The translations under genes and the position numbers were made by a program. Shown piece by piece: positions 11,608-22,629 of a stretch of DNA of 53,465 bases. The notes beneath the pieces were generated by a model that ran no database searches, was not told where the DNA came from, and saw only the letters and a list, made by a program, of their open reading frames with translations. Location: contig JBIJCS010000001.1 of the NCBI GenBank assembly GCA_044344575.1, forward strand, positions 1 through 53,465, read 5' to 3'. Every line of letters begins with the position of its first letter. Position 1 is the stretch's first letter. This stretch comes from Pirellula sp. (GTDB lineage Bacteria > Planctomycetota > Planctomycetia > Pirellulales > Pirellulaceae).

Positions 11608-12536
11608 ATCCAGAGTTTAAGCCGGCCATCGAGTCGATCGGGGAGGGCCCGATCGACCCATCTTTGGATTTGTTTGGCGTTGTAGCGGACAGAGAAATGT
11701 CCGCAGATAATCAGATCGTTTTTGAATTGGTCTTTGCGTTCCACAAAATCATCGAGGTGCATATGGCCATCTTTATGGATTCGATCTTTTCGATGGTCGG
11801 GAGCTAGGAAAGTCATTTCCGTGATCAAGACTTTTGCGCGGAGCATATCGGGGTTACGGTCGAGTCCTTCGGGGGCTGTATCACCTGTGTAAGCAACAAG
11901 AGGGATTCTGGTTTCAAACGTCACTTCGGCACCCTTGAGCTTGATGTCTCTGATTTGCTCACCTGAGAAATCTTGGTATTCGGGTTTGAGTTTCTTGCGG
12001 CGTTCCCAAACAATAAAACCGAGGGCTGGAATGGAATGTTTCATCGCGTGTGTGGAAACGATGAGTTCTCTCGAAAGTTCAATCTCTTGGTTCTCTCGAA
12101 TGGGGACTAAATCGCAAGGCATGCGTCCGCGATCTAATCTGGAAACGACTTTGAGCATTTGGTCAACGGTAGCTTTTGCATAGTCGGGCAAATAGATCGT
12201 TGGCGGTTCCATCTTCATCATTCGTCGTCGGGCGACGTAAGAAGGTATTGCGGCGATGTGATCGAGGTGTGGGTGCGAGATGAAGTAGCGAGGAAGAGCC
12301 ATGAAGTCCCAGGGTTGCGCACCGAGATCAAATCCGATTTTCAGTTCAGCGATTCGCCAGTAGCTTTGCACGGCGGCCCGAGAATAGCCATCGATCGTTA
12401 ACCCTTGATGGTGTAGGCCGAGTGTTGGAGCATTATCTACGGATCCGATCGCATCGGATGCTTCTTGGGAACTTAATTCTCCGGTAGCCGAAGGATCGTT
12501 TGGGGGTTCGGTATGTGGGGATTGGTTTTTCTTCAT
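11604..12536 (-). CDS. Metallo-beta-lactamase-fold hydrolase, short RNase Z-like
   Basis: SHPHLDH (HxHxDH), KHSIP, YTGDT, TEMTF, GHMH, GHFS motifs; RKKLKPEY arm. Start overlaps the upstream PNP stop by 4 nt. Confidence 0.8.
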   Translation of the reverse strand: MKKNQSPHTEPPNDPSATGELSSQEASDAIGSVDNAPTLGLHHQGLTIDGYSRAAVQSYWRIAELKIGFDLGAQPWDFMALPRYFISHPHLDHIAAIPSYVARRRMMKMEPPTIYLPDYAKATVDQMLKVVSRLDRGRMPCDLVPIRENQEIELSRELIVSTHAMKHSIPALGFIVWERRKKLKPEYQDFSGEQIRDIKLKGAEVTFETRIPLVAYTGDTAPEGLDRNPDMLRAKVLITEMTFLAPDHRKDRIHKDGHMHLDDFVERKDQFKNDLIICGHFSVRYNAKQIQRWVDRALPDRLDGRLKLWI

Positions 12537-13420
12537 GATGCCGAACTTGGTGGAAAGTATTCCGAGAGAAGAGATTCAATCAGTGGTACTAGCTGTCCTT
12601 TAGCTTGGGATGACCAGTTCAGTACGTCTGCATGATCGGTTACTGTAGCGTTGTCGCTATTGGCGACGTTTGTGACGATTGAGAAAGCGAGTACGGGAAT
12701 CTTGCGATCGAAAGCCAGTTTAGCTTCTGGGACGGTACTCATGCCGACCATGTCAGCGCCCAGGTTTCGAAACATTCGGTATTCGGATCGGGTTTCGTAA
12801 TTCGGTCCGAGGGTAGCCCAGTAGGTTCCTGTAGTGAGTGCAAACCCAAGTTTTATTGCCGTTTGTTGGGCTCGCTCGATCCATGTACGGTCGTAGAGGG
12901 TTACGTTGCGGGACAGGAGACCATCATTGGGCTTGGATTGAAAAAGTGGGGGTTGTGGACGGAACATTCCATCGATGTGTGAGTCCATTAACACAACTTG
13001 GCCGGATCGAAACCTAGGGTTGATACCGCCGGATGCGTTTGAAAGAATCAATAGATCGATATTAAGGTCGATCAATGTTTGGACTGGTACGAGGGCTTGT
13101 TCCATGCGCCAGCCTTCGTACAGATGGCAGCGTCCTTGCAGAGCAGCTACGGGGGTGCCAGCAAGATCGCCCAAGATTAGCTTACCGGCGTGACCACTGA
13201 CGTGTGTGGTTGGGAATCCTGGTATTTCGTGGAAATCAAAGATAGCGATAGGTACGATTTGATGAGCGAGATCACCTAGACCACTGCCTAGTACGATGCC
13301 AACGCGGGGTTGGAACCCGGATAAGTGAGCGCGAAGGAACTCGATGGATTTCAAATCCAAAGTGGAGTGATCGGACCGCGCTGAGCTTATACCGGATGCG
13401 GCTGAAGGTTGACTTGACAC
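12533..13420 (-). CDS. Purine nucleoside phosphorylase (trimeric PNP type, Asn form)
   Basis: LGSGLG, GHAG, QGRCHLYEG, SNASGG, GPNYET, VGMSTVPE, VTN motifs. Confidence 0.9.
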   Translation of the reverse strand: MSSQPSAASGISSARSDHSTLDLKSIEFLRAHLSGFQPRVGIVLGSGLGDLAHQIVPIAIFDFHEIPGFPTTHVSGHAGKLILGDLAGTPVAALQGRCHLYEGWRMEQALVPVQTLIDLNIDLLILSNASGGINPRFRSGQVVLMDSHIDGMFRPQPPLFQSKPNDGLLSRNVTLYDRTWIERAQQTAIKLGFALTTGTYWATLGPNYETRSEYRMFRNLGADMVGMSTVPEAKLAFDRKIPVLAFSIVTNVANSDNATVTDHADVLNWSSQAKGQLVPLIESLLSEYFPPSSAS

Positions 13421-13481
13421 CGTATTGAGTGAAAACCAATTGGAAGAAGACTTGAATCGTATTCGAGTGGGCGATCGACGG

Positions 13482-14318
13482 TTACTTTCGGCTGTTTACG
13501 TCGGCTTCTAGAACACCGGTAACGAGAGTCGCAAGCCTTGGAGCGGCTTGGTTTGCAATAGCGATGATTTTCTGTACATCCGCTGGTTCGAGTGCATCTG
13601 GCAGGCACATATCGGTGATGACGGAGAAGCCCACGGTTCGCATGCCGCAGTGCACTGCTACGATGACTTCTGGAACGGTTGACATTCCGACCACATCAGC
13701 ACCGATTAAGCGTAGGAATCGGTATTCGGCGCGCGTTTCGAGGTTGGGACCACTGACGGCGACAAAGACGCCTTGATGTGCTCGAATGTCGTTTTTGCGA
13801 GCGACCCGAAGTCCTTCTTCGATCAATGCGTGATCGTACGGGGCGCTCATATCTGGAAATCTAGGTCCGAGTCGATCATCGTTAATGCCGATCAACGGGT
13901 TGTCTCCCATTAGGTTGATGTGATCTTCGATGAACAGAATATCACCGGCGCGGTGATTAGGGTTCATGCCACCGCAGGCGTTTGAAACCAGCAAAAGGGA
14001 AGCTCCTAATGCGTTCATCACACGCACGGGGAGGGTAATTTGCTTGAGTGGATAACCTTCGTACATGTGGAATCGACCTTCCATGGCTACGACGGGAACT
14101 CCGCAGAGTTCGCCGCAGACGAGACGACCGCGATGGGAGGTTGCCGTGGATTTCAGGAAGTGTGGGATTTCCGCGTAGTCGAAAGTTTCTTGGACATTGA
14201 TTTTTTCGACCAAAGGTCCCAAGCCGGTTCCGAGGATGATTCCTGCGTGGGGCTTGCGATCCCAACGCTTGCGAATCGCATCGCAAGCTTCCTGAATTTT
14301 GTCGTAGAGATCCAACAT
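13482..14318 (-). CDS. Purine nucleoside phosphorylase (trimeric PNP type, Asp form)
   Basis: LGTGLG, EGRFHMYEG, SNACGG, DHINL, RFPDMS, GPNLET, VGMSTVPE, ITD motifs. Confidence 0.92.
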   Translation of the reverse strand: MLDLYDKIQEACDAIRKRWDRKPHAGIILGTGLGPLVEKINVQETFDYAEIPHFLKSTATSHRGRLVCGELCGVPVVAMEGRFHMYEGYPLKQITLPVRVMNALGASLLLVSNACGGMNPNHRAGDILFIEDHINLMGDNPLIGINDDRLGPRFPDMSAPYDHALIEEGLRVARKNDIRAHQGVFVAVSGPNLETRAEYRFLRLIGADVVGMSTVPEVIVAVHCGMRTVGFSVITDMCLPDALEPADVQKIIAIANQAAPRLATLVTGVLEADVNSRK

Positions 14319-14381: not shown

Positions 14382-16166
14382 TTACTTGAGAATCATGTCG
14401 TCCACCGTCTTTCCGGAAGGAATCATGGGCAAGACGTGTTCTTGGTATGGCACTTCGACATCCAGAACAAACGGCCCTGGGTAGTCGATCATCTCTTGGA
14501 GTGCTGCTTGTAAATCGCATTTGCGTCGGACTGTTGCGGCTCCACATCCGTAGCCTTTGGCGATTTGCACAAAGTCCGGATAGCGCTCTGCGGCGTAGGA
14601 GTGGGCGACGGTGGACCCAGGCCCGCGAGCTTCTTCGTGGTCGATAGGACCGAGGTACGTATGAGCGCGGTTAGAGCCCATAAATCGGTCTTCCCATTGA
14701 ACCACCATTCCCAAGTGTTGGTTATTCAGTAGCAGGACCTTTACTGGGAGTTTTTCGCAATGCAGGGTTGCAAGTTCTTGGATATTCATTTGAAAGGAAC
14801 CGTCGCCATCGATATCGATGACGAGAGCATTGGGATGTGCGGCTTGCACACCCATCGCAGCGGGAAGACCGAAACCCATGGTTCCTAGGCCACTACTGCT
14901 GAGCCAAGTTCTTGGGCGGCGGAATTGGAAGAACTGTGCGGCCCACATTTGGTGTTGACCGACACCTACGGTCACGTAGGTTTCCCTCTGCTTTGTCATG
15001 TTTGATAGGGTTCGGATGGCATGCTGTTGCAAAATGCCGTCGAAGTTCTCGTCGTATTGGAACGGGGTTTTGGCTTTCCAATCACGGCATTGTTGAAGCC
15101 ATTGCGAGATATCTTCGGGAGCTTCGACGATCTTGTTCAGTTCGTCCAAGGCGTAACGAATTTCGCTACGAACGGCGATGTGTGCTACTTTGTTTTTGTT
15201 GAGTTCCGAGGCATCGATATCCACGTGAACGATTTTGGCATGTTTTGCAAAAGAGGCGAGATGTCCGGTTACACGATCATCGAACCGCACACCGAAAGCC
15301 AATAGAAGATCGCAATCACGCACGGCGTAGTTTGCGTATGCGGCCCCGTGCATTCCGAGCATGTCCATCGACAATGGGTCTTCGGCGGAAAGGATTCCCA
15401 AGCCCATGACGGTCATGGTTACCGGGATGCCGGTCTTGTGTACCAAGGTACGGATTGCCTCGGAGGCCTCACCCGTTACAACACCGCCGCCGCAATAAAT
15501 CATAGGGCGTTTGCTGTGGCGAATCGCTGCCGCGATTTGACGAATCTGTTCCGGGGCAGCATTTGGATGTTTCGTGGGTTTGTATCCGGGCAAGTTCATC
15601 GAAACTTCATCTGGTACTTCACACGAGTCCATCTGCACGTCTTTGGGCATATCGACGAGAACGGGACCAGGGCGCCCCGTGGTTGCAATATGAAACGCCT
15701 CTTTCATCACTCGCGCAACATCTTCAACACGCGTAACCAAGTAATGATGTTTTGTAATTCCGCGGCAGATCTCAACGATCGGCGTTTCCTGGAATGCATC
15801 GGTACCGATCACGGCGGTAGGAACTTGGCCGGTGATTGCAATTAGGGGGATACTGTCGAGTTTCGCATCAGCGATGGCGGTAACCAAGTTCGTAGCACCA
15901 GGACCGCTGGTTGCCATGACAACTCCGACTTTCCCCGTCGATCGCGCGATACCTTGAGCGGCGAAAGCACCACCTTGTTCGTGTCTCGGTAGGATGGTAC
16001 GCAGTTTGTCGGAATACTTGGTCAGCGATTGATGCATAGGCATCGAGCACCCGCCGGGATAGGCGAAGATCACCTCTACCCCGTGATCCACCAAGGACTT
16101 AACCACAATATCGGCACCGGTCATCACTTGGGATTTCCGAGTCGTAGCGGTAGAGGTCGTTGGCAT
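14382..16166 (-). CDS. ilvB: Acetolactate synthase large (catalytic) subunit
   Basis: [46 protein letters not shown], ThDP motif DGDGSFQMN; ATG at 16166 has SD AAGGAG upstream. Confidence 0.96.
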
Positions 16167-16217: not shown

Positions 16218-16226
16218 AATATACCA
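16218..16226 (-). promoter_or_regulatory. Putative extended -10 element (TGGTATATT) for ilvB
   Basis: Matches TGnTAnnnT about 52 nt upstream of the ilvB ATG; -35 is weak. Confidence 0.45.
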
Positions 16227-16257
16227 CGTGTTTGCAAAACCGTCGAACGCTGCTAGA

Positions 16258-16305
16258 TGCGACATTGTGACATGGAGTGCGACAGTTCGACGTGGTCGTG
16301 TCGCA
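16258..16305. promoter_or_regulatory. Putative enhancer (UAS) for an NtrC-family activator: tandem imperfect palindromes
   Basis: TGCGACATTGTGACA (16258-16272) and TGCGACAGTTCGACG (16278-16292) repeat with a 20-bp period, plus inverted half-site TGTCGCA (16299-16305); 130-175 bp upstream of a sigma54 motif. Confidence 0.6.
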
Positions 16306-16433
16306 GTTGAGGTTGTACCACGAGGCGGGGGCAGAGACGTTTTTAGATTCGATTCGGGCGAAAGACTCAGGATTCTCTCGATTCGCTGGCAAAACAAGCT
16401 TTCGAAGTACCTTTTTTTGATTGAACGAGGTTC

Positions 16434-16449
16434 TGGTACGCTGATTGCA
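16434..16449 (+). promoter_or_regulatory. sigma54 (-24/-12) promoter
   Basis: TGGTACG-CTGA-TTGCA, one mismatch from consensus TGGCACG-N4-TTGCA with exact GG-N10-GC spacing; predicts TSS near 16460. Confidence 0.75.
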
Positions 16450-16459
16450 CCCACGGGTT

Positions 16460-16572
16460 GTCCGTAGAGCGGCAGTCTGATGTACCGCGATCCTTGCTCC
16501 GGGCGTTAAAACCACCCAACCGGTTTTAATGGCGAGAATCGAACAAGTGTACCGGGCTGTCGCTCTTTTTTT
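16460..16572 (+). ncRNA. Candidate sigma54-dependent small RNA (~110 nt rod-like hairpin ending in U-tract)
   Basis: Hand-folded helices 16466-79/16553-66 (14 bp), 16481-85/16547-51, 16488-98/16531-41, 16505-13/16522-30, loop ACCCAACC, then T7 (16566-72). Several G-U pairs favour the + strand; starts just after the sigma54 promoter. Confidence 0.65.
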
Positions 16573-16684
16573 GTTTGTTCGGTCCGACATGCCGTTGATC
16601 GCTAGCGTGATGGACGCTGGAGAGATTCGATACCGGGATCCGATTGATGCAACTTAACGATGTAGTCGGTTGGGGTTTAGCATC

Positions 16685-18049
16685 CTACTCGTCGCTTTCC
16701 TCATCATTGGGTTGAGTAACTCCCCAGGCTTTTAGTTTGCGTTGCAGGGTTCTGACGGAAATACCAAGAGTGTGAGCGGCGTGAGTACGGTTTCCGAAAG
16801 ACTTTTTCAGTGCGCTGAGGATTGCATCTTTTTCGAGTTGCTGGAGGTTCAGAGGGATTCGGCGAGAGCTTGAGGTTTCGGTTTGGGGATTTCCGCTGAG
16901 ATACTTCGGTAAATCGCGTAGAGTCAGGATTCGTTCTTCTCCCATGACCACCATGTTTTCGATGGCATTACGCAATTGCCTTACATTTCCAGGCCAGTCG
17001 TATTGTCCGAGGTAATCCAGGAGTTCTGGGGCAACTTCGGGAATGGGTCTTAGGTGTCGCCGAGCGCAGTCTTCAAGGAAATGTTCAACGAGGATTGGGA
17101 TATCTTCGGGGCGTTCCCGCAGAGGTGGAAGTTCGATGCTCAGGACGTTGAGTCTGTGGTAAAGGTCGATCCGAAAGTGGTCTCGTTGGATCATTTCAGA
17201 GATATTTCTACTAGTTGCGGCGATGAGTCGAATGTCGACGGATGTTTCGATATTGGTTCCCACGGGAGCGAACGCATAGCTTTCTAAAACGCGCAAGAGT
17301 TTTGGTTGTAGGGTTAGCGGGAGGTCCCCGATTTCGTCCATGAAAAGAGTGCCACGATTCGCAGCGCGGAATCGACCATCGCGGTTTTCCTGGGCACCGG
17401 TAAATGCTCCGCGCACGTAGCCGAATAGCTCGGATTCGATGAGAGCGTCGGGGAGCGCTGAGACGTTGACTGCGACGAAGGAAGCGTTCTTTCGTCGACT
17501 GTTTTCGTGAATTGCGGAGGCTACAAGTTCCTTGCCGGTACCGGATTCACCGGTAATCAGTACCGTCGCATCTGAGGATGCTACGCGGAGGATCTGTTTA
17601 AAGATGTCTCGCATTTGATCGGATTGGCCGATCATCTTCCCGATCCCACCGATATCGATGGCGGTCTGATCGTTTCCTCTTAATCGCATGGGAAGGTAGC
17701 GATTGAGCAGGACCAGTAGTTCCTCTGGTTTGAGGGGTTTCGTCAGATAGTCTGAAGCCCCGAGTTTCATGGCTTCGACGGCTGAGTGAATATCGCCGTA
17801 GGCAGTAACCATCAGTACAGGAACTGTTGGTTTTTCAATTCTCCATTGTCTGAGGACATCCAAGCCATTTTCTTGTCCGAGTCGAAGATCGCAGACCACT
17901 AAATCCACGGCTGATTCGAAAGCTTGGATCGCCTCCCTTTGATTGCTTGCACCTACGGCGCGATAGCCTTCGGATCGCAGCAGTCGCACCATTGCATCGC
18001 GCTCTCGGACTTGGTCTTCAACGACGAGAATAGACAGGCCCGTATTCAT
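16685..18049 (-). CDS. Sigma54-dependent response regulator (NtrC/AtoC family; REC-AAA+-Fis HTH)
   Basis: REC (VVED, CDLRL, VTAYG, KP), Walker A GESGTGKE, ESELFG, GAFTGA, LFMDEIG, WPGNVRQL, HTH AAHTLGISVRTLQRKL. Confidence 0.95.
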   Translation of the reverse strand: MNTGLSILVVEDQVRERDAMVRLLRSEGYRAVGASNQREAIQAFESAVDLVVCDLRLGQENGLDVLRQWRIEKPTVPVLMVTAYGDIHSAVEAMKLGASDYLTKPLKPEELLVLLNRYLPMRLRGNDQTAIDIGGIGKMIGQSDQMRDIFKQILRVASSDATVLITGESGTGKELVASAIHENSRRKNASFVAVNVSALPDALIESELFGYVRGAFTGAQENRDGRFRAANRGTLFMDEIGDLPLTLQPKLLRVLESYAFAPVGTNIETSVDIRLIAATSRNISEMIQRDHFRIDLYHRLNVLSIELPPLRERPEDIPILVEHFLEDCARRHLRPIPEVAPELLDYLGQYDWPGNVRQLRNAIENMVVMGEERILTLRDLPKYLSGNPQTETSSSRRIPLNLQQLEKDAILSALKKSFGNRTHAAHTLGISVRTLQRKLKAWGVTQPNDEESDE

Positions 18050-19511
18050 TTTGCTGCGTGTTTATTGGATCGGGAATAGGGAAATGAGACACTTGCGGTT
18101 GCGTGGAGGGATCATCGTCCCCGGAATTACTGTCGACATGCCCTTTAAGGTGCATTTCGAAACGTAATCCGCCGAGGTCGGGGCTTCTAGTACAGGAAAT
18201 AGCTCCTCCGTTTGCCTCTAGGAGGTTTCTCACTACTGCAAGTCCTAGGCCAACGCCGTCTCGTCTTGAACTATAAAACGGTTCGAATATTTTTTCGAAC
18301 ATGTTGTCGGCGATTCCTGGACCGTCATCTTCGAACGTTATTGCTATGCCGTTTTGATGGTTTTGTACAGAAATGCGGATGCGTCCACCCTCGGGCAAAG
18401 CGTCGCGGGAGTTTTGGAGCAAGTTGAGCAGGATTTGTCGAAAATGCTTGGACGAAATCATAGCTTGCGCATGGGGGGCTTGCGTTGCAATTGAAACCCC
18501 AATGTGATGATGCTCATGGATTCGTTTCATGAAATTCATAACTGCGGTCAGTTCTCGATCGATGTCGATCCAAGCCTCTTGTTGGTTTTCGATTCTGGCA
18601 AAACCGAGTAATTGTCCAATCAAGTCGTTCACGCGTTCCAATTCACTGACCGATTCTCGGATCATCATCGAGGCTTCATCGATCGGGACATTGGATTCCC
18701 CGCGTATCAGTTTTTCGGATGTGAACAGATTCAATCGAACGGCGTTAAGGGGGTTTCTCAGTTCGTGAGCGATTCCAACGATAAGCCGGCTTAAATCCGC
18801 AAGCCGACGGGTTTCCGCGGTCCGCAGAGCTTCTTCGAGTGCTTTGGCATGTTTTCCTAAGCGGAAAAGAGATACCGAGGTGACGCTGACGATCGCGACC
18901 ATCGATAGAAGAATCGTAACCCACACGACCCAACGGGAGCGTTGAGCTTCGACCACAAGGTTGTCCAGCCAAGTCAATGGAATCGCTGTTGAGTAGGTCG
19001 CAAGTACTTGATCCCGGTTTCCGATGGGTACTTGGACCTCAATGACATCAACCCATTTGCCGTTTTGCTTTACGGAAATTTCCTGAACATTGCTGGGGAA
19101 TCCCTCAAGCGGTTTCGCGGTCCAGTGATTGACTTTTAGGTTGTCGAAGACTCCGGCAACGGCGAGGGCTTCGCCCGAGCGGGTTGCAATTTTTGCGTAT
19201 GCCCGATCTGGTTTTTTGATAATCACTCGATTCCAGTGGTCGCGTAGCCAGGGTTGTACGTTTGGTTCGGTGAAGTTTAAAAGTGTTTTTCCGTCCTTGA
19301 GATCCGATTCGATCCGCACAATAGTTCTCTCAATGTGCGATTGAAGCTTAGCAACTTCAGCGGAATAGATCAGTTTCCGGCGGTTGGAAAGATCGTTGGC
19401 CAGCCCTACACAGCAAATGACCGTCACGAGCAGCACTGCCGCGGCAATAAATATTAGCGGAGCCCATCGTCGATTCGGGAACCCTTTTTCATTGATTTTC
19501 GAATTCTCCAT
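18018..19511 (-). CDS. Membrane sensor histidine kinase
   Basis: Two TM segments flanking an extracytoplasmic domain; H-box IAHELRNPL, N-box NLLQNS, DDGPG, FEPFY, GLGL. Overlaps the response regulator start. Confidence 0.93.
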   Translation of the reverse strand: MENSKINEKGFPNRRWAPLIFIAAAVLLVTVICCVGLANDLSNRRKLIYSAEVAKLQSHIERTIVRIESDLKDGKTLLNFTEPNVQPWLRDHWNRVIIKKPDRAYAKIATRSGEALAVAGVFDNLKVNHWTAKPLEGFPSNVQEISVKQNGKWVDVIEVQVPIGNRDQVLATYSTAIPLTWLDNLVVEAQRSRWVVWVTILLSMVAIVSVTSVSLFRLGKHAKALEEALRTAETRRLADLSRLIVGIAHELRNPLNAVRLNLFTSEKLIRGESNVPIDEASMMIRESVSELERVNDLIGQLLGFARIENQQEAWIDIDRELTAVMNFMKRIHEHHHIGVSIATQAPHAQAMISSKHFRQILLNLLQNSRDALPEGGRIRISVQNHQNGIAITFEDDGPGIADNMFEKIFEPFYSSRRDGVGLGLAVVRNLLEANGGAISCTRSPDLGGLRFEMHLKGHVDSNSGDDDPSTQPQVSHFPIPDPINTQQNEYGPVYSRR

Positions 19512-19549
19512 CGCTTTTGTCTCCCGAATCAAGGCTTTCTCGAACCCGC

Positions 19550-19572: not shown

Positions 19573-22500
19573 ATGGAACCAGAAGCGACTTTCTCCCGCC
19601 TTATCTTTGCCCAAACTAACTACTCCTCTGAGGATATTCCGTCGGGGATATCTTCCGTCGATGCATGCGACTACCATGCGGCTTGGACGAGCCTTTGGCA
19701 CCCCTTGATTATCGATCTTCTAGGCTTCCTTCCCGAGTCGAAAAGGACCGATCCGTCCGGCTTAGACGTTGAAAACGCTTTGATTTTGGTCCCCAATGCA
19801 TCCGCTGAGAAATTGGATCAGCCGCTTGAGGAGCGACTCGCACTCTCTCATTCGACGTTCATGTTCTCTCGCTCATCTGCCAGGGGGGAGCTTGTCAAGT
19901 CTTTACTGCGCGCGATCGCGATTCGCGCTGGGGGTGCCGAAGCGGAGGGTTCTGGAATTGAACAGGCGTTGCAAGGCGATTCTGTTGCTTGCAGTCTAGC
20001 CGAGGATTTTCATGCATTCGGCTATGCTGTACAGCAGGTTCAGTGCATGGCGAGGAAACTGCGGTACAGTTTTAACTTGGACTGGATGGTTGTTACTGAG
20101 CAGTTGCTTTCGTCGGCTCGCTGTTTCGCTGGTGGAGATTTCGAAGAATGCGATCGGTTGTTGGCTGCCGCTTACGACTCGCTTTCGCAAGAAAGAGATC
20201 GTTATTGTTCTCAGCAAGCGTACCTGATGCATTTAGTATTGACGGCTTCGGTCAATCCGAAGAGTGCCAAAAGCCCGATTGGTGCATTGTTCGTTTCTGA
20301 GCTGCAACGCGACACGGTATCGAATGTTTTGGCAACTACCGAGACGCTTGAGAAGATTCGCTCAGGCAACTCGCAAGGATTTGAATTGCTTCAACATCGA
20401 CTCCGCGAAAAATCACTTTCCTTATTGGGTGGCTTTGCAAAGGAGCTTCAGCACACCTATTTGACGGAGCACGCGTTGCATCGAAGTTTCAGTTTCGCTC
20501 GACGCGAGGTTCAGCGACTCGGTTTGCCAGCGGTTACGACGCTAGCCCCTTTTCGACCTGGCATTCCTGGTTGTTTACCGAGCATTGCCCTATCCCATGG
20601 ATATCAAGGGGCATTGATCGCACGGTTTAGCGATGGCATGATTCCAGAAAAGGAGCATGCGAAGCTCCGATGGCAAGAGACTTCGGAAAGTCCTGCGCTC
20701 GACACGATTCTTGGGCATGTCCTCGATGCGAACGACAACGAATCGCTCTTGAACTTCGGAACCGAATTAGCGAAGCAGTTAGATTATCATCAAGTACCAA
20801 CGATGGTGCTTGCTCATTGGCCGTTGCAGGTGTGCTTGGGGTTCGAAGATCTTTTGCGAGCAGCAAGGCGTTCTCCTGCGTTGGGGAAATTTGTTCTTAT
20901 AGACGAGTATTTTGCTTCGACTTCTCAGCCGTATTGGTCCGAGCAGTTCGCAACCCCTAATTTTCCATTTCCGGTTCGCGGTCCGAGTCAGAGGTTGCAT
21001 TCGATCCAGTGCAGTTTGATCAAGTTGCACGGTTTGCTTTATCGAGCTGAGCGGATTGAAGAAGCGATCGAGCTGATTAAGCCATTGACGACGCTTGAGG
21101 TTATTCAAGAATTCGCGAGCAAACTGAAGGATCTACTGCATCGATGCGATGCGATCGCGCAGCACGATTCTATTGAGATCGAGTCTCCCGAAAATTGGTA
21201 TCCTGCGTTGTTTGCGGAGATTCAGCAGTTGCAGGATCAAGTCGGGGGGGTACTGCAATCGACATTTGGGACTGGAGATGGTTTTGCAGTGGTACATCCG
21301 GCTTCGCATCCTGCGCGTCGGCTTGTACGTCTTTCGGTTCCGAAAAGTCAGCTACTTCACACCAAGAACGAACGCATCGTTCATGCTTGTGATCTTCCAG
21401 ATGGAAAGAATTGTGAATTGCTCGTGGATATTCCACCATATGGATTTACATCGATCCCAACCATGGGATCGTGCAAGCCCGATTCAGAGATACCTCGCGA
21501 GAAGAAATCAACGGGACTTTTTTCAAAGTGGTTTGGGAGCAACCATCCAGTTGCCACTCCAGCAGGTTTGTTGTCAAACGAATTCATCGAAGCGCAATTC
21601 GATTCGATCAAAGGGCATTTGCGAGCGTTCTACGTCCGGGATCAACGAGGGAATAGACTCAGTGCAATGTTGTCGTTAGTTCAAAGACCCTTGGACTTCG
21701 CAACGAAGTATTCTGAGAAGGACTTTCTCGCGTTGCAATCGGTTTCGATGGAGAGTTCCAATCCAACCGATGCTTCGGGCGTTGTCTCGATTCGAGGGGG
21801 CTTTATCACGGATGTAGCCTCTGGCAATGGGCCACGAATTACTCAGACCTTCACGATGCACACGCAGGCCAAGTGGTTAGAGATCCACGTGAAGGGAAGT
21901 GGATTTTCAGCTAGCGAGCACTATCCAGTTTGGCGCATGGTATGGCCTAGTGAGGCTGCAAGTCTGAGTTTGTGGGCGGCGAGCAACAAAAGCAAGTGGC
22001 TCCAGCCTTTACAAGCAAATACTGAGTTGATTGAGATCGACGACGCGCAGTACAAACTTTACATTGCCACCGGTGGGCTAAGTGTCCATAGGAAGTACGG
22101 ACCGAACCAATTGGTTACAGCCTTACCGATCTCCAAAGACGGTTCGGTCGATGTTCGGTTGTTCATTGGTTTGCAATGGCAGCGTCCATGGGAGACAGCT
22201 ATTGATTTGTTCCAGGAGCCATGGGTCTTGCAGCCCAAGTCCTCCGCGGCGGCTACATCCATCCCACAAAGTGCTTGGCTTGCGCAGTGCAACCATCCGA
22301 ACGTTCGCATGCATTTTTTAGCGAGTGATTGGGTGATGCCAAATTTGGGAGAGGTTCCGATGGATCCTGGATTTTTTCAGCCTGAATCCCTTATTTCGAT
22401 CCTTGAGACGGCGGGAAAGTCGGGGACGGCAAAAATAAGTTTGCCGAAAAAACCCACTGAGGCGTTCAAGATGAACTTTACTGGGCAAACGTTGGATAAA

Positions 22501-22629
22501 CTGGAGGTTCAAGGTTCGAGTATCTCGGTTCCCTACGGACCGAGGGAGCGGTGCTTGGTAGGAGTTTCTTATCGGGCCGATGAGCCGAACGCGTTGGTTG
22601 CAGGGAATCGTAGTCGGGAACCAGAGTGA
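19573..22629 (+). CDS. Large hypothetical protein, glycoside hydrolase/deacetylase (GH38-like) architecture suspected
   Basis: 1018-aa ORF 6 nt upstream of the kinase; motifs such as AWTSLWHP, LRWQ and VDIPPYGF recall planctomycete alpha-mannosidase-like proteins (recollection, not a search). Confidence 0.6.
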   Translation: MEPEATFSRLIFAQTNYSSEDIPSGISSVDACDYHAAWTSLWHPLIIDLLGFLPESKRTDPSGLDVENALILVPNASAEKLDQPLEERLALSHSTFMFSRSSARGELVKSLLRAIAIRAGGAEAEGSGIEQALQGDSVACSLAEDFHAFGYAVQQVQCMARKLRYSFNLDWMVVTEQLLSSARCFAGGDFEECDRLLAAAYDSLSQERDRYCSQQAYLMHLVLTASVNPKSAKSPIGALFVSELQRDTVSNVLATTETLEKIRSGNSQGFELLQHRLREKSLSLLGGFAKELQHTYLTEHALHRSFSFARREVQRLGLPAVTTLAPFRPGIPGCLPSIALSHGYQGALIARFSDGMIPEKEHAKLRWQETSESPALDTILGHVLDANDNESLLNFGTELAKQLDYHQVPTMVLAHWPLQVCLGFEDLLRAARRSPALGKFVLIDEYFASTSQPYWSEQFATPNFPFPVRGPSQRLHSIQCSLIKLHGLLYRAERIEEAIELIKPLTTLEVIQEFASKLKDLLHRCDAIAQHDSIEIESPENWYPALFAEIQQLQDQVGGVLQSTFGTGDGFAVVHPASHPARRLVRLSVPKSQLLHTKNERIVHACDLPDGKNCELLVDIPPYGFTSIPTMGSCKPDSEIPREKKSTGLFSKWFGSNHPVATPAGLLSNEFIEAQFDSIKGHLRAFYVRDQRGNRLSAMLSLVQRPLDFATKYSEKDFLALQSVSMESSNPTDASGVVSIRGGFITDVASGNGPRITQTFTMHTQAKWLEIHVKGSGFSASEHYPVWRMVWPSEAASLSLWAASNKSKWLQPLQANTELIEIDDAQYKLYIATGGLSVHRKYGPNQLVTALPISKDGSVDVRLFIGLQWQRPWETAIDLFQEPWVLQPKSSAAATSIPQSAWLAQCNHPNVRMHFLASDWVMPNLGEVPMDPGFFQPESLISILETAGKSGTAKISLPKKPTEAFKMNFTGQTLDKLEVQGSSISVPYGPRERCLVGVSYRADEPNALVAGNRSREPE

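Follow-up and report, generated by a model that had tools for sequence, protein, structure and literature searches.

A predicted rod-shaped RNA with a sigma54-type promoter beside a two-component system in a Pirellula subgroup: a candidate signal-controlled circuit

Results and Discussion

Organization of the locus

The window, that is, the whole stretch of DNA analysed (53,465 nt of contig JBIJCS010000001.1, GCA_044344575.1), belongs to a Pirellula sp. genome of 4.9 Mb that is 92% complete. The subject of this study is a predicted 113-nt RNA encoded on its plus strand, together with the promoter and enhancer elements ahead of it and the two-component system genes beside it. This plus-strand unit occupies the 518-bp gap between the start of an acetolactate synthase gene (16166), presumably ilvB judging from its sequence and from the name used in the first-pass annotation, and the stop of a response regulator gene (16685). 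The features are the following:

14382..16166, minus strand: ilvB-type acetolactate synthase large subunit (TPP_enzyme N, M and C domains)
16218..16246, minus strand: sigma70-like promoter candidate for ilvB (one found against 0.8 expected by chance)
16259..16304, no strand assigned: predicted enhancer, two imperfect GCGACA-N3-TGTCGC palindromes 20 bp apart and a half-site (motif scan)
16412..16418, plus strand: T-tract between enhancer and promoter, a possible bend (sequence scan)
16434..16449, plus strand: sigma54 -24/-12 promoter motif TGGTACG-N4-TTGCA (motif scan)
16460..16572, plus strand: predicted 113-nt non-coding RNA, one rod and a U-tract (folding, covariance model, alignment)
16498..16503, plus strand: 6-nt bulge UCCGGG, candidate protein-recognition site (alignment)
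16514..16521, plus strand: C-rich apical loop ACCCAACC (fold and alignment)
16685..18049, minus strand: NtrC-family response regulator with REC, Sigma54_activat (AAA+, GAFTGA) and HTH_8 domains, convergent with the RNA (domain search) and its predicted activator
18018..19532, minus strand: sensor histidine kinase with HisKA and HATPase_c domains, overlapping the regulator start (domain search)

The promoter, enhancer, T-tract and hairpin elements listed by the first-pass annotation were all recovered in place, to within one base. The GCGACA of its tandem palindromes begins at 16259 and at 16279, giving the 20-bp period; TGGTACG starts at 16434 and TTGCA at 16445; runs of seven T occupy 16412-16418 and 16566-16572; and the 14-bp closing helix of the rod is formed by 16466-16479 with 16553-16566. 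Its two enhancer sites (16259-16273 and 16279-16293) stand, and a third half-site, TGTCGC at 16299, had been overlooked. The domain search bears out the GAFTGA-bearing activator and the kinase that it had named as neighbours; neither protein reaches the cut-off of any listed named family. The plus-strand unit had been described as free of a credible open reading frame (ORF), and no conserved one was found. On the minus strand, an ORF of 127 amino acids spans the gap, and a corresponding ORF exists in the closest relative (L002); no gap ORF of at least 120 amino acids is present at loci L003-L005.

Fold and conservation of the RNA

The segment 16460-16572 folds as a single rod of -44.4 kcal/mol (z -3.77), equalled by one of 200 shuffled sequences, with z values of -1.13 for the opposite strand and -2.51 for a wider stretch of 136 nt. 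Because its two ends pair with each other, the RNA would act as its own terminator, the closing helix and U-tract doubling as the termination signal. A simple terminator scan accepting loops of 3-8 nt returns no terminator, the whole RNA being the hairpin here.

A structural alignment was assembled from 30 copies, comprising 21 genome copies and nine further loci picked to avoid identical scores, with pairwise identities as low as 42%. In this alignment 95.3% of 973 cells are paired, against 31-43% in controls with slid structures, and two-sided changes occur in 25 of the 33 pairs, counts that overstate the support as the alignment was fitted to the model and its rows are kin. Entire closing helices are swapped between subgroups, RNAalifold returns the same fold from the alignment, and the plus strand is the more stable one, by energy and G-U pairs, in 26 of 30 copies. 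Conservation peaks at two places. The first is the bulge, with five columns invariant in 30/30 copies and one in 29/30, together with its flanking G-C, C-G and C-G pairs (30/30); the second is the apical loop CCAACC, retained in 29-30 of 30 copies. The conserved bases that are exposed amount to only about 14 nt. In sequence, the bulge reads C-UYCG-G and recalls a UNCG tetraloop. An alternative pairing of two CCGG stretches was rejected, being broken in G357 and G346, as was self-dimerisation, for which the gain is only 4-9 kcal/mol (six copies). Overall, it is very probable that the locus encodes a genuine RNA whose structure is conserved and whose promoter is of the sigma54 type.

Distribution and family identity

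The distribution was examined with BLASTN, two covariance models (R1 and R2) and sequence pattern scans. BLASTN detects the inner hairpin in 5 of 40 relatives, and a search with the regulator C-terminus matches 31 of 67 genus genomes, the hairpin standing beside the regulator in 18 of the 30 loci returned. R1 and R2 alike find a single copy in 21 of the 67 genus genomes. Beyond the genus, R1 yields no credible match in 149 family genomes, its one hit (E 0.023) having been discarded as an AU-rich stretch lacking the core, and R2 matches none of 149 phylum genomes; both scans used strict filters, which distant forms could escape. The strict pattern is absent from 300 other family genomes; a pattern scan of 185,579 species genomes gives 20 matches, 18 of them in records titled Pirellula sp. 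or Planctomycetota/Planctomycetaceae metagenome assemblies. One match (L085) was rejected as chance. Another (L092) is a true copy, with promoter and Pirellula-type ilvB, in a record titled Beijerinckiaceae, likely a misbinned contig. Among pattern matches in metagenomes, 20 of 78 pass the model; viral contigs give none. No second copy was found in the window's own genome by BLASTN, model or bulge-motif scan, and with filters off neither the surroundings of ilvB in three single-contig genomes nor those of 14 sister and family regulators contained a diverged copy. Since matches are confined to a genus subgroup, a freshwater lineage, and none in the family or phylum genomes is credible, the family is narrow as far as it was searched.

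In a search of the whole Rfam 15 library, nothing covers the RNA at gathering score or at E values up to 10, in agreement with the first-pass annotation, which did not recognise it as a known family; a chance match (P37, E 4.9) lies downstream of the RNA and was set aside. The literature searched contains no description of this RNA, the supplements of motif-discovery papers, PMC5737381 included, lying outside its scope; the main text of PMC11109978 does not mention Pirellula or Planctomycetes. Judged by sequence and predicted structure, the RNA forms a new family, and its circuit is of an established type.

Promoter and enhancer

With the usual sigma54 numbering, the predicted start falls at 16460. 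The -24/-12 motif is present upstream of the RNA in 29 of 30 copies, and the predicted start lies 0-6 nt ahead of the rod in 22 of them. In seven copies a variable leader of 52-131 nt separates promoter and rod; these long forms of 161-236 nt (L050, L054, L056, L057, L058, L006 and L092) have leaders predicted to form hairpins and may be processed precursors. As to the T-tract, 21 of 30 loci have a run of at least five A or T; a consensus resembling that of IHF is found in just 8 of the 30. The gene for sigma54, rpoN, is present in 5/5 genomes, the window's own included.

Tandem sites of the GCGACA-N3-TGTCGC type recur about 90-180 bp upstream across the loci. The 4.9-Mb genome contains 18 matches to a strict sigma54 motif, and this site has the best score there for the combination of enhancer and promoter. 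A combined test is passed by 19 of 21 genome loci, a recovery that is partly circular as the enhancer motif was derived from these same loci. No other site passes in the window's own genome or in 2.36 Mb of G360, against one in a reversed control, at a threshold set after the fact (a looser one gave five matches against four in the control). The enhancer-plus-promoter combination at this site thus exceeds chance. The closing stem as a mimic of the enhancer was rejected, TGTCGC being present in just 2 of 30 copies.

Elsewhere in the same genome, strict sigma54 motifs lie upstream of two genes that look like groEL and groES (C431:536 on the minus strand and C539:10715 on the plus strand), and about 185 nt ahead of a CsrA match (C128:3084, plus strand).

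Association with the two-component system

The regulator directly follows the RNA in 26 of the 30 loci (25 by a first test and L053 by a second), and three of the remaining four stop at a contig end before the regulator is reached. The kinase stands beside the regulator in 13 of the 20 pattern loci; in six the contig ends first and one is the chance match. In a regulator tree of the quick type, a group of 21 regulators (support 91) together with its nearest outlier, G346, covers all 21 carriers. Of the 22 genomes so defined, 21 have the RNA, the only group member without a match (G008) having a contig end at that place; it was found in none of the 45 other genus genomes. Conservation beside orthologous regulators had been named beforehand as one of the points on which the first-pass annotation could fail: promoter, enhancer and hairpin are conserved there, with strong covariation, although in one Pirellula subgroup and not in Planctomycetota at large.

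Further indications come from the regulators themselves. Among 10 activator BLAST hits in the window's genome, the neighbouring regulator is the sole one with this helix-turn-helix (HTH). Nine genus regulators without an adjacent RNA show a sigma54 motif 95-134 nt past the stop in eight cases and the palindrome in six, and these promoters precede GCS2 ligase, methyltransferase or membrane-protein genes; none of 14 family-level homologues has a sigma54 motif of equal score. The motif and palindrome beside the sister regulators suggest that the system keeps its target next door and that the target here is the RNA. The RNA is probably driven by the adjacent two-component system; this link, already proposed in the first-pass annotation, is still an inference, now backed by the co-occurrence, the unique HTH and the enhancers and promoters of the sister regulators.

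At four sister loci (L032, L033, L034 and L036) the regulator, 63% identical, is followed by the sigma54 motif and then by a GCS2-family ligase gene, for which tblastn gives no match in the window's genome. In one subgroup (L006, L024, L026, L056 and L092) a REP-like short palindromic repeat is found between the RNA and the regulator, where it falls together with contig ends; it has one match in the window's genome.

Traces in RNA libraries and opposing observations

Part of the stretch is contained in 22 RNA runs. Six of the 24 runs listed were examined, and the remainder, having small shares of it, count as no evidence; the runs were chosen for containing it, and their contigs show neither strand nor transcript ends. 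In X20, a 100-nt contig extends from inside the closing helix to the U-tract of a relative's copy and comprises nothing but the RNA. In X2, contigs of the core have depths of 27-29, against 5-7 for those on either side. These metatranscriptome contigs give a weak hint of expression.

Several observations speak against an RNA that is expressed, driven by its neighbour and bound by protein. X1 and X2 contain very long contigs as well as contigs bridging the promoter, so that DNA is likely present in both; a contig of X3 covers promoter, RNA and downstream sequence; and one of X6, which begins near the start of the X20 contig (the sequence ahead of it being presumably Illumina adapter), runs 852 nt beyond the U-tract. 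The co-occurrence of RNA and regulator is not independent, because all cases lie within one clade. In G346 the RNA retains enhancer and promoter near ilvB and the regulator is found elsewhere, beside a protein gene. As for the RNA itself, the copy of G357 is without the CCAACC loop, C-rich loop and bulge also fit pairing with a G-rich mRNA, and no candidate partner (RapZ, SpoVG or CsrA) tracks the RNA.

In G346, a gene that is presumably cation-antiporter-like lies between ilvB and the RNA (C483:4184-6213; L058, L179), and the regulator occupies a separate contig (C259, L027), with its own enhancer and sigma54 motif ahead of a membrane-protein gene. This arrangement is possibly an intermediate between RNA output and protein output.

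Comparison with known systems

The closest parallel in layout is PxrK-PxrR-pxr of Myxococcus xanthus, where the genes of a kinase and an NtrC-like regulator likewise stand beside a small RNA gene preceded by an enhancer region and a predicted sigma54 promoter, and which is also lineage-restricted and co-evolving with its two-component system (PMC5684412). Pxr forms three stem-loops and the Pirellula RNA one rod; moreover, pxr is downstream of pxrR with promoter and enhancer in between, whereas the Pirellula RNA is convergent with the regulator and has its promoter on the far side (PMC5684412). In enterobacterial GlrK-GlrR-glmY, too, a sigma54 small RNA adjoins its activating two-component system, with several activator sites more than 100 bp upstream, and GlmY is a decoy acting through a conserved stem-loop (PMC4152352). 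The glmY sites read TGTC-N10-GACA as opposed to GCGACA-N3-TGTCGC in Pirellula (PMC4152352), GlmY shows no sequence or model match, and the Pirellula RNA has no paralogous RNA. In its predicted working the circuit resembles PxrKR-pxr or GlrKR-glmY, and by sequence and fold the RNA belongs to neither RNA family.

Other systems share single features. In CbrAB-CrcZ and LuxO-Qrr, an enhancer-binding response regulator drives a sigma54 small RNA as well. CrcZ and Qrr both work through Hfq; their folds differ from the rod described here, and Hfq was not found in five Pirellula genomes. Rli31 of Listeria, likewise a long hairpin whose apical loop is C-rich, binds SpoVG in vitro (PMC4959528), and differs in having a separate terminator and a 14-nt complementarity to the spoVG leader (PMC4959528); no such complementarity was seen for the Pirellula RNA in G360. 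6S RNA (RF00013) is also a rod closed by 5'-3' pairing, although its model has 187 positions against 113 nt and the Pirellula RNA has no large central bubble and a narrow distribution. With no RF00013 match and no such bubble, 6S identity was rejected; 6S was not found in 6/6 genomes, and Pirellula staleyi and Rhodopirellula baltica are reported to lack it (PMC5673643, citing Wehner 2014). Bacterial small signal recognition particle (SRP) RNA was likewise rejected, as RF00169 does not match and the SRP RNA of the genome is on another contig.

Proposed mode of action and alternatives

In the proposed circuit, the kinase, whose sensor domain (residues 40-200) is flanked by two hydrophobic segments and is sCache-like as a lead only, would sense an extracytoplasmic cue and phosphorylate the regulator; the regulator would bind the tandem sites 130-175 bp upstream and open the sigma54 promoter; and the self-terminating RNA of about 110 nt would be made once the pair is activated. 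We consider this sequence of steps likely. The stable rod may then present the UCCGGG bulge and the CCAACC loop to a protein partner, titrating or recruiting it in the way that GlmY acts on RapZ. Given the circuit, the case for such a protein-binding output is evenly poised, and the whole chain from two-component system to protein-binding output is put forward tentatively, at slightly less than even confidence.

Protein binding is the leading mechanism because the search for mRNA targets gave none and neither Hfq nor RapZ was detected; the few exposed bases and the invariant paired bases around the bulge, which stay fixed while the closing helix swaps freely, favour it over mRNA pairing. Hfq was found in 0/5 genomes, two of them single-contig, which does not fit an Hfq-dependent base-pairing RNA; RapZ was likewise found in 0/5, and a GlmY-type RapZ decoy was rejected. 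SpoVG was found in 4/5 genomes, carriers and non-carriers, and not in the 92%-complete genome of the window. CsrA has four matches in this genome, and a CsrA sponge of the CsrB/RsmY type was rejected since GGA occurs 0-2 times per copy (0 in the window's copy), with no GGA loops. CsrA matches number 10 in G009 and 7 in G021 versus 4 in each of three RNA carriers.

Among the alternatives, it is possible, if doubtful, that an RNA under the same promoter and regulator acts in trans, its C-rich loop or the CUCC of the bulge pairing with G-rich mRNA without Hfq, as in Pxr- or Rli31-type loops. The exposure of the CCAACC loop and its conservation in 29-30 of 30 copies would suit this, and one subgroup reads CCUCC, the complement of GGAGG, the genes here using GGAG near -11; Pxr has a likely mRNA target (PMC11928866). 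Against it, 3219 roughly called starts show no excess of sequences complementary to loop or bulge in their vicinity, shared seeds among 873 orthologue pairs with G360 (2.36 of 5.6 Mb) do not exceed control hexamers, the top matches of these pairs are explained by coding motifs or a G-rich spacer, and there is no signal on ilvB (mean z about -0.3, 28 loci) or spoVG, all by tests that are weak for short seeds.

Feedback in cis, in which the RNA or its read-through would damp the convergent kinase-regulator mRNA by pairing with its 3' end, is very unlikely. In 17 of 30 loci the U-tract does overlap the stop codon of the regulator gene, and one RNA-library contig connects hairpin and downstream sequence; antisense pairing, however, requires neither an invariant bulge nor an invariant loop, the gap between RNA and regulator reaches 73-311 nt in nine loci, and the RNA of G346 faces another gene. 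It is similarly improbable that a real sigma54 RNA answers to a different activator, its neighbourhood being historical. Nine further activator-family proteins in the genome, the unlinked RNA and regulator of G346 and a linkage to ilvB as tight as that to the regulator leave room for this, but the HTH regions of the nine differ, the same palindrome stands beside sister regulators without RNA, and the RNA was not found in genus genomes lacking this regulator group.

Less probable again is a signal-induced decoy for sigma54 RNA polymerase, 6S-like for the enhancer-dependent sigma, in a lineage without detected 6S RNA. The most invariant helix, UUGCU paired with UGGC beside the open bulge, carries the letters of the -12 and -24 elements; if this were true, the RNA produced through the two-component system would bind sigma54 holoenzyme and reset the regulon of this sigma factor. 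Finally, it is highly improbable that there is no independent RNA and that the hairpin is instead a terminator on the minus strand, part of an ilvB leader or a gene for a small peptide: on the minus strand it follows the regulator stop and precedes ilvB, and 29 of 30 copies contain an AUG, yet strand asymmetry and the U-tract favour the plus strand, a promoter motif of its own precedes ilvB even in genomes lacking the RNA, and the AUG, replaced by ACG in one copy, sits inside a helix and starts frames of 16-65 amino acids that diverge after four codons, for which reason a peptide gene was rejected.

Flanking genes

The ilvB gene adjoins the RNA in 28 of 30 aligned loci, and in genomes without the RNA a similar sigma70-like motif is seen by eye upstream of it; ilvB is probably a conserved neighbour with its own promoter and not part of the circuit. 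It is followed by two tandem minus-strand genes (12533-14318), presumably purine-nucleoside-phosphorylase-like from their translations. Divergent from the kinase, a plus-strand gene (19573-22629) encodes a 1018-amino-acid protein with no Pfam or NCBIfam match.

Conclusions

From the sensor through to the output RNA, the locus provides every part of a candidate circuit, together with defined sites and a structural alignment of 30 sequences, and would stand as a parallel to Pxr and GlmY that is independent of them. The narrow range of the family and the metagenome origin of the carriers seen limit the weight of the locus. In the literature searched, no regulatory small RNA circuit in Planctomycetota was found. 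If the proposal is true, a signal-controlled small RNA, predicted to bind protein, would operate in a phylum without detected Hfq, and the neighbouring sigma54 output, a protein operon in sister lineages, would be an RNA in this lineage.

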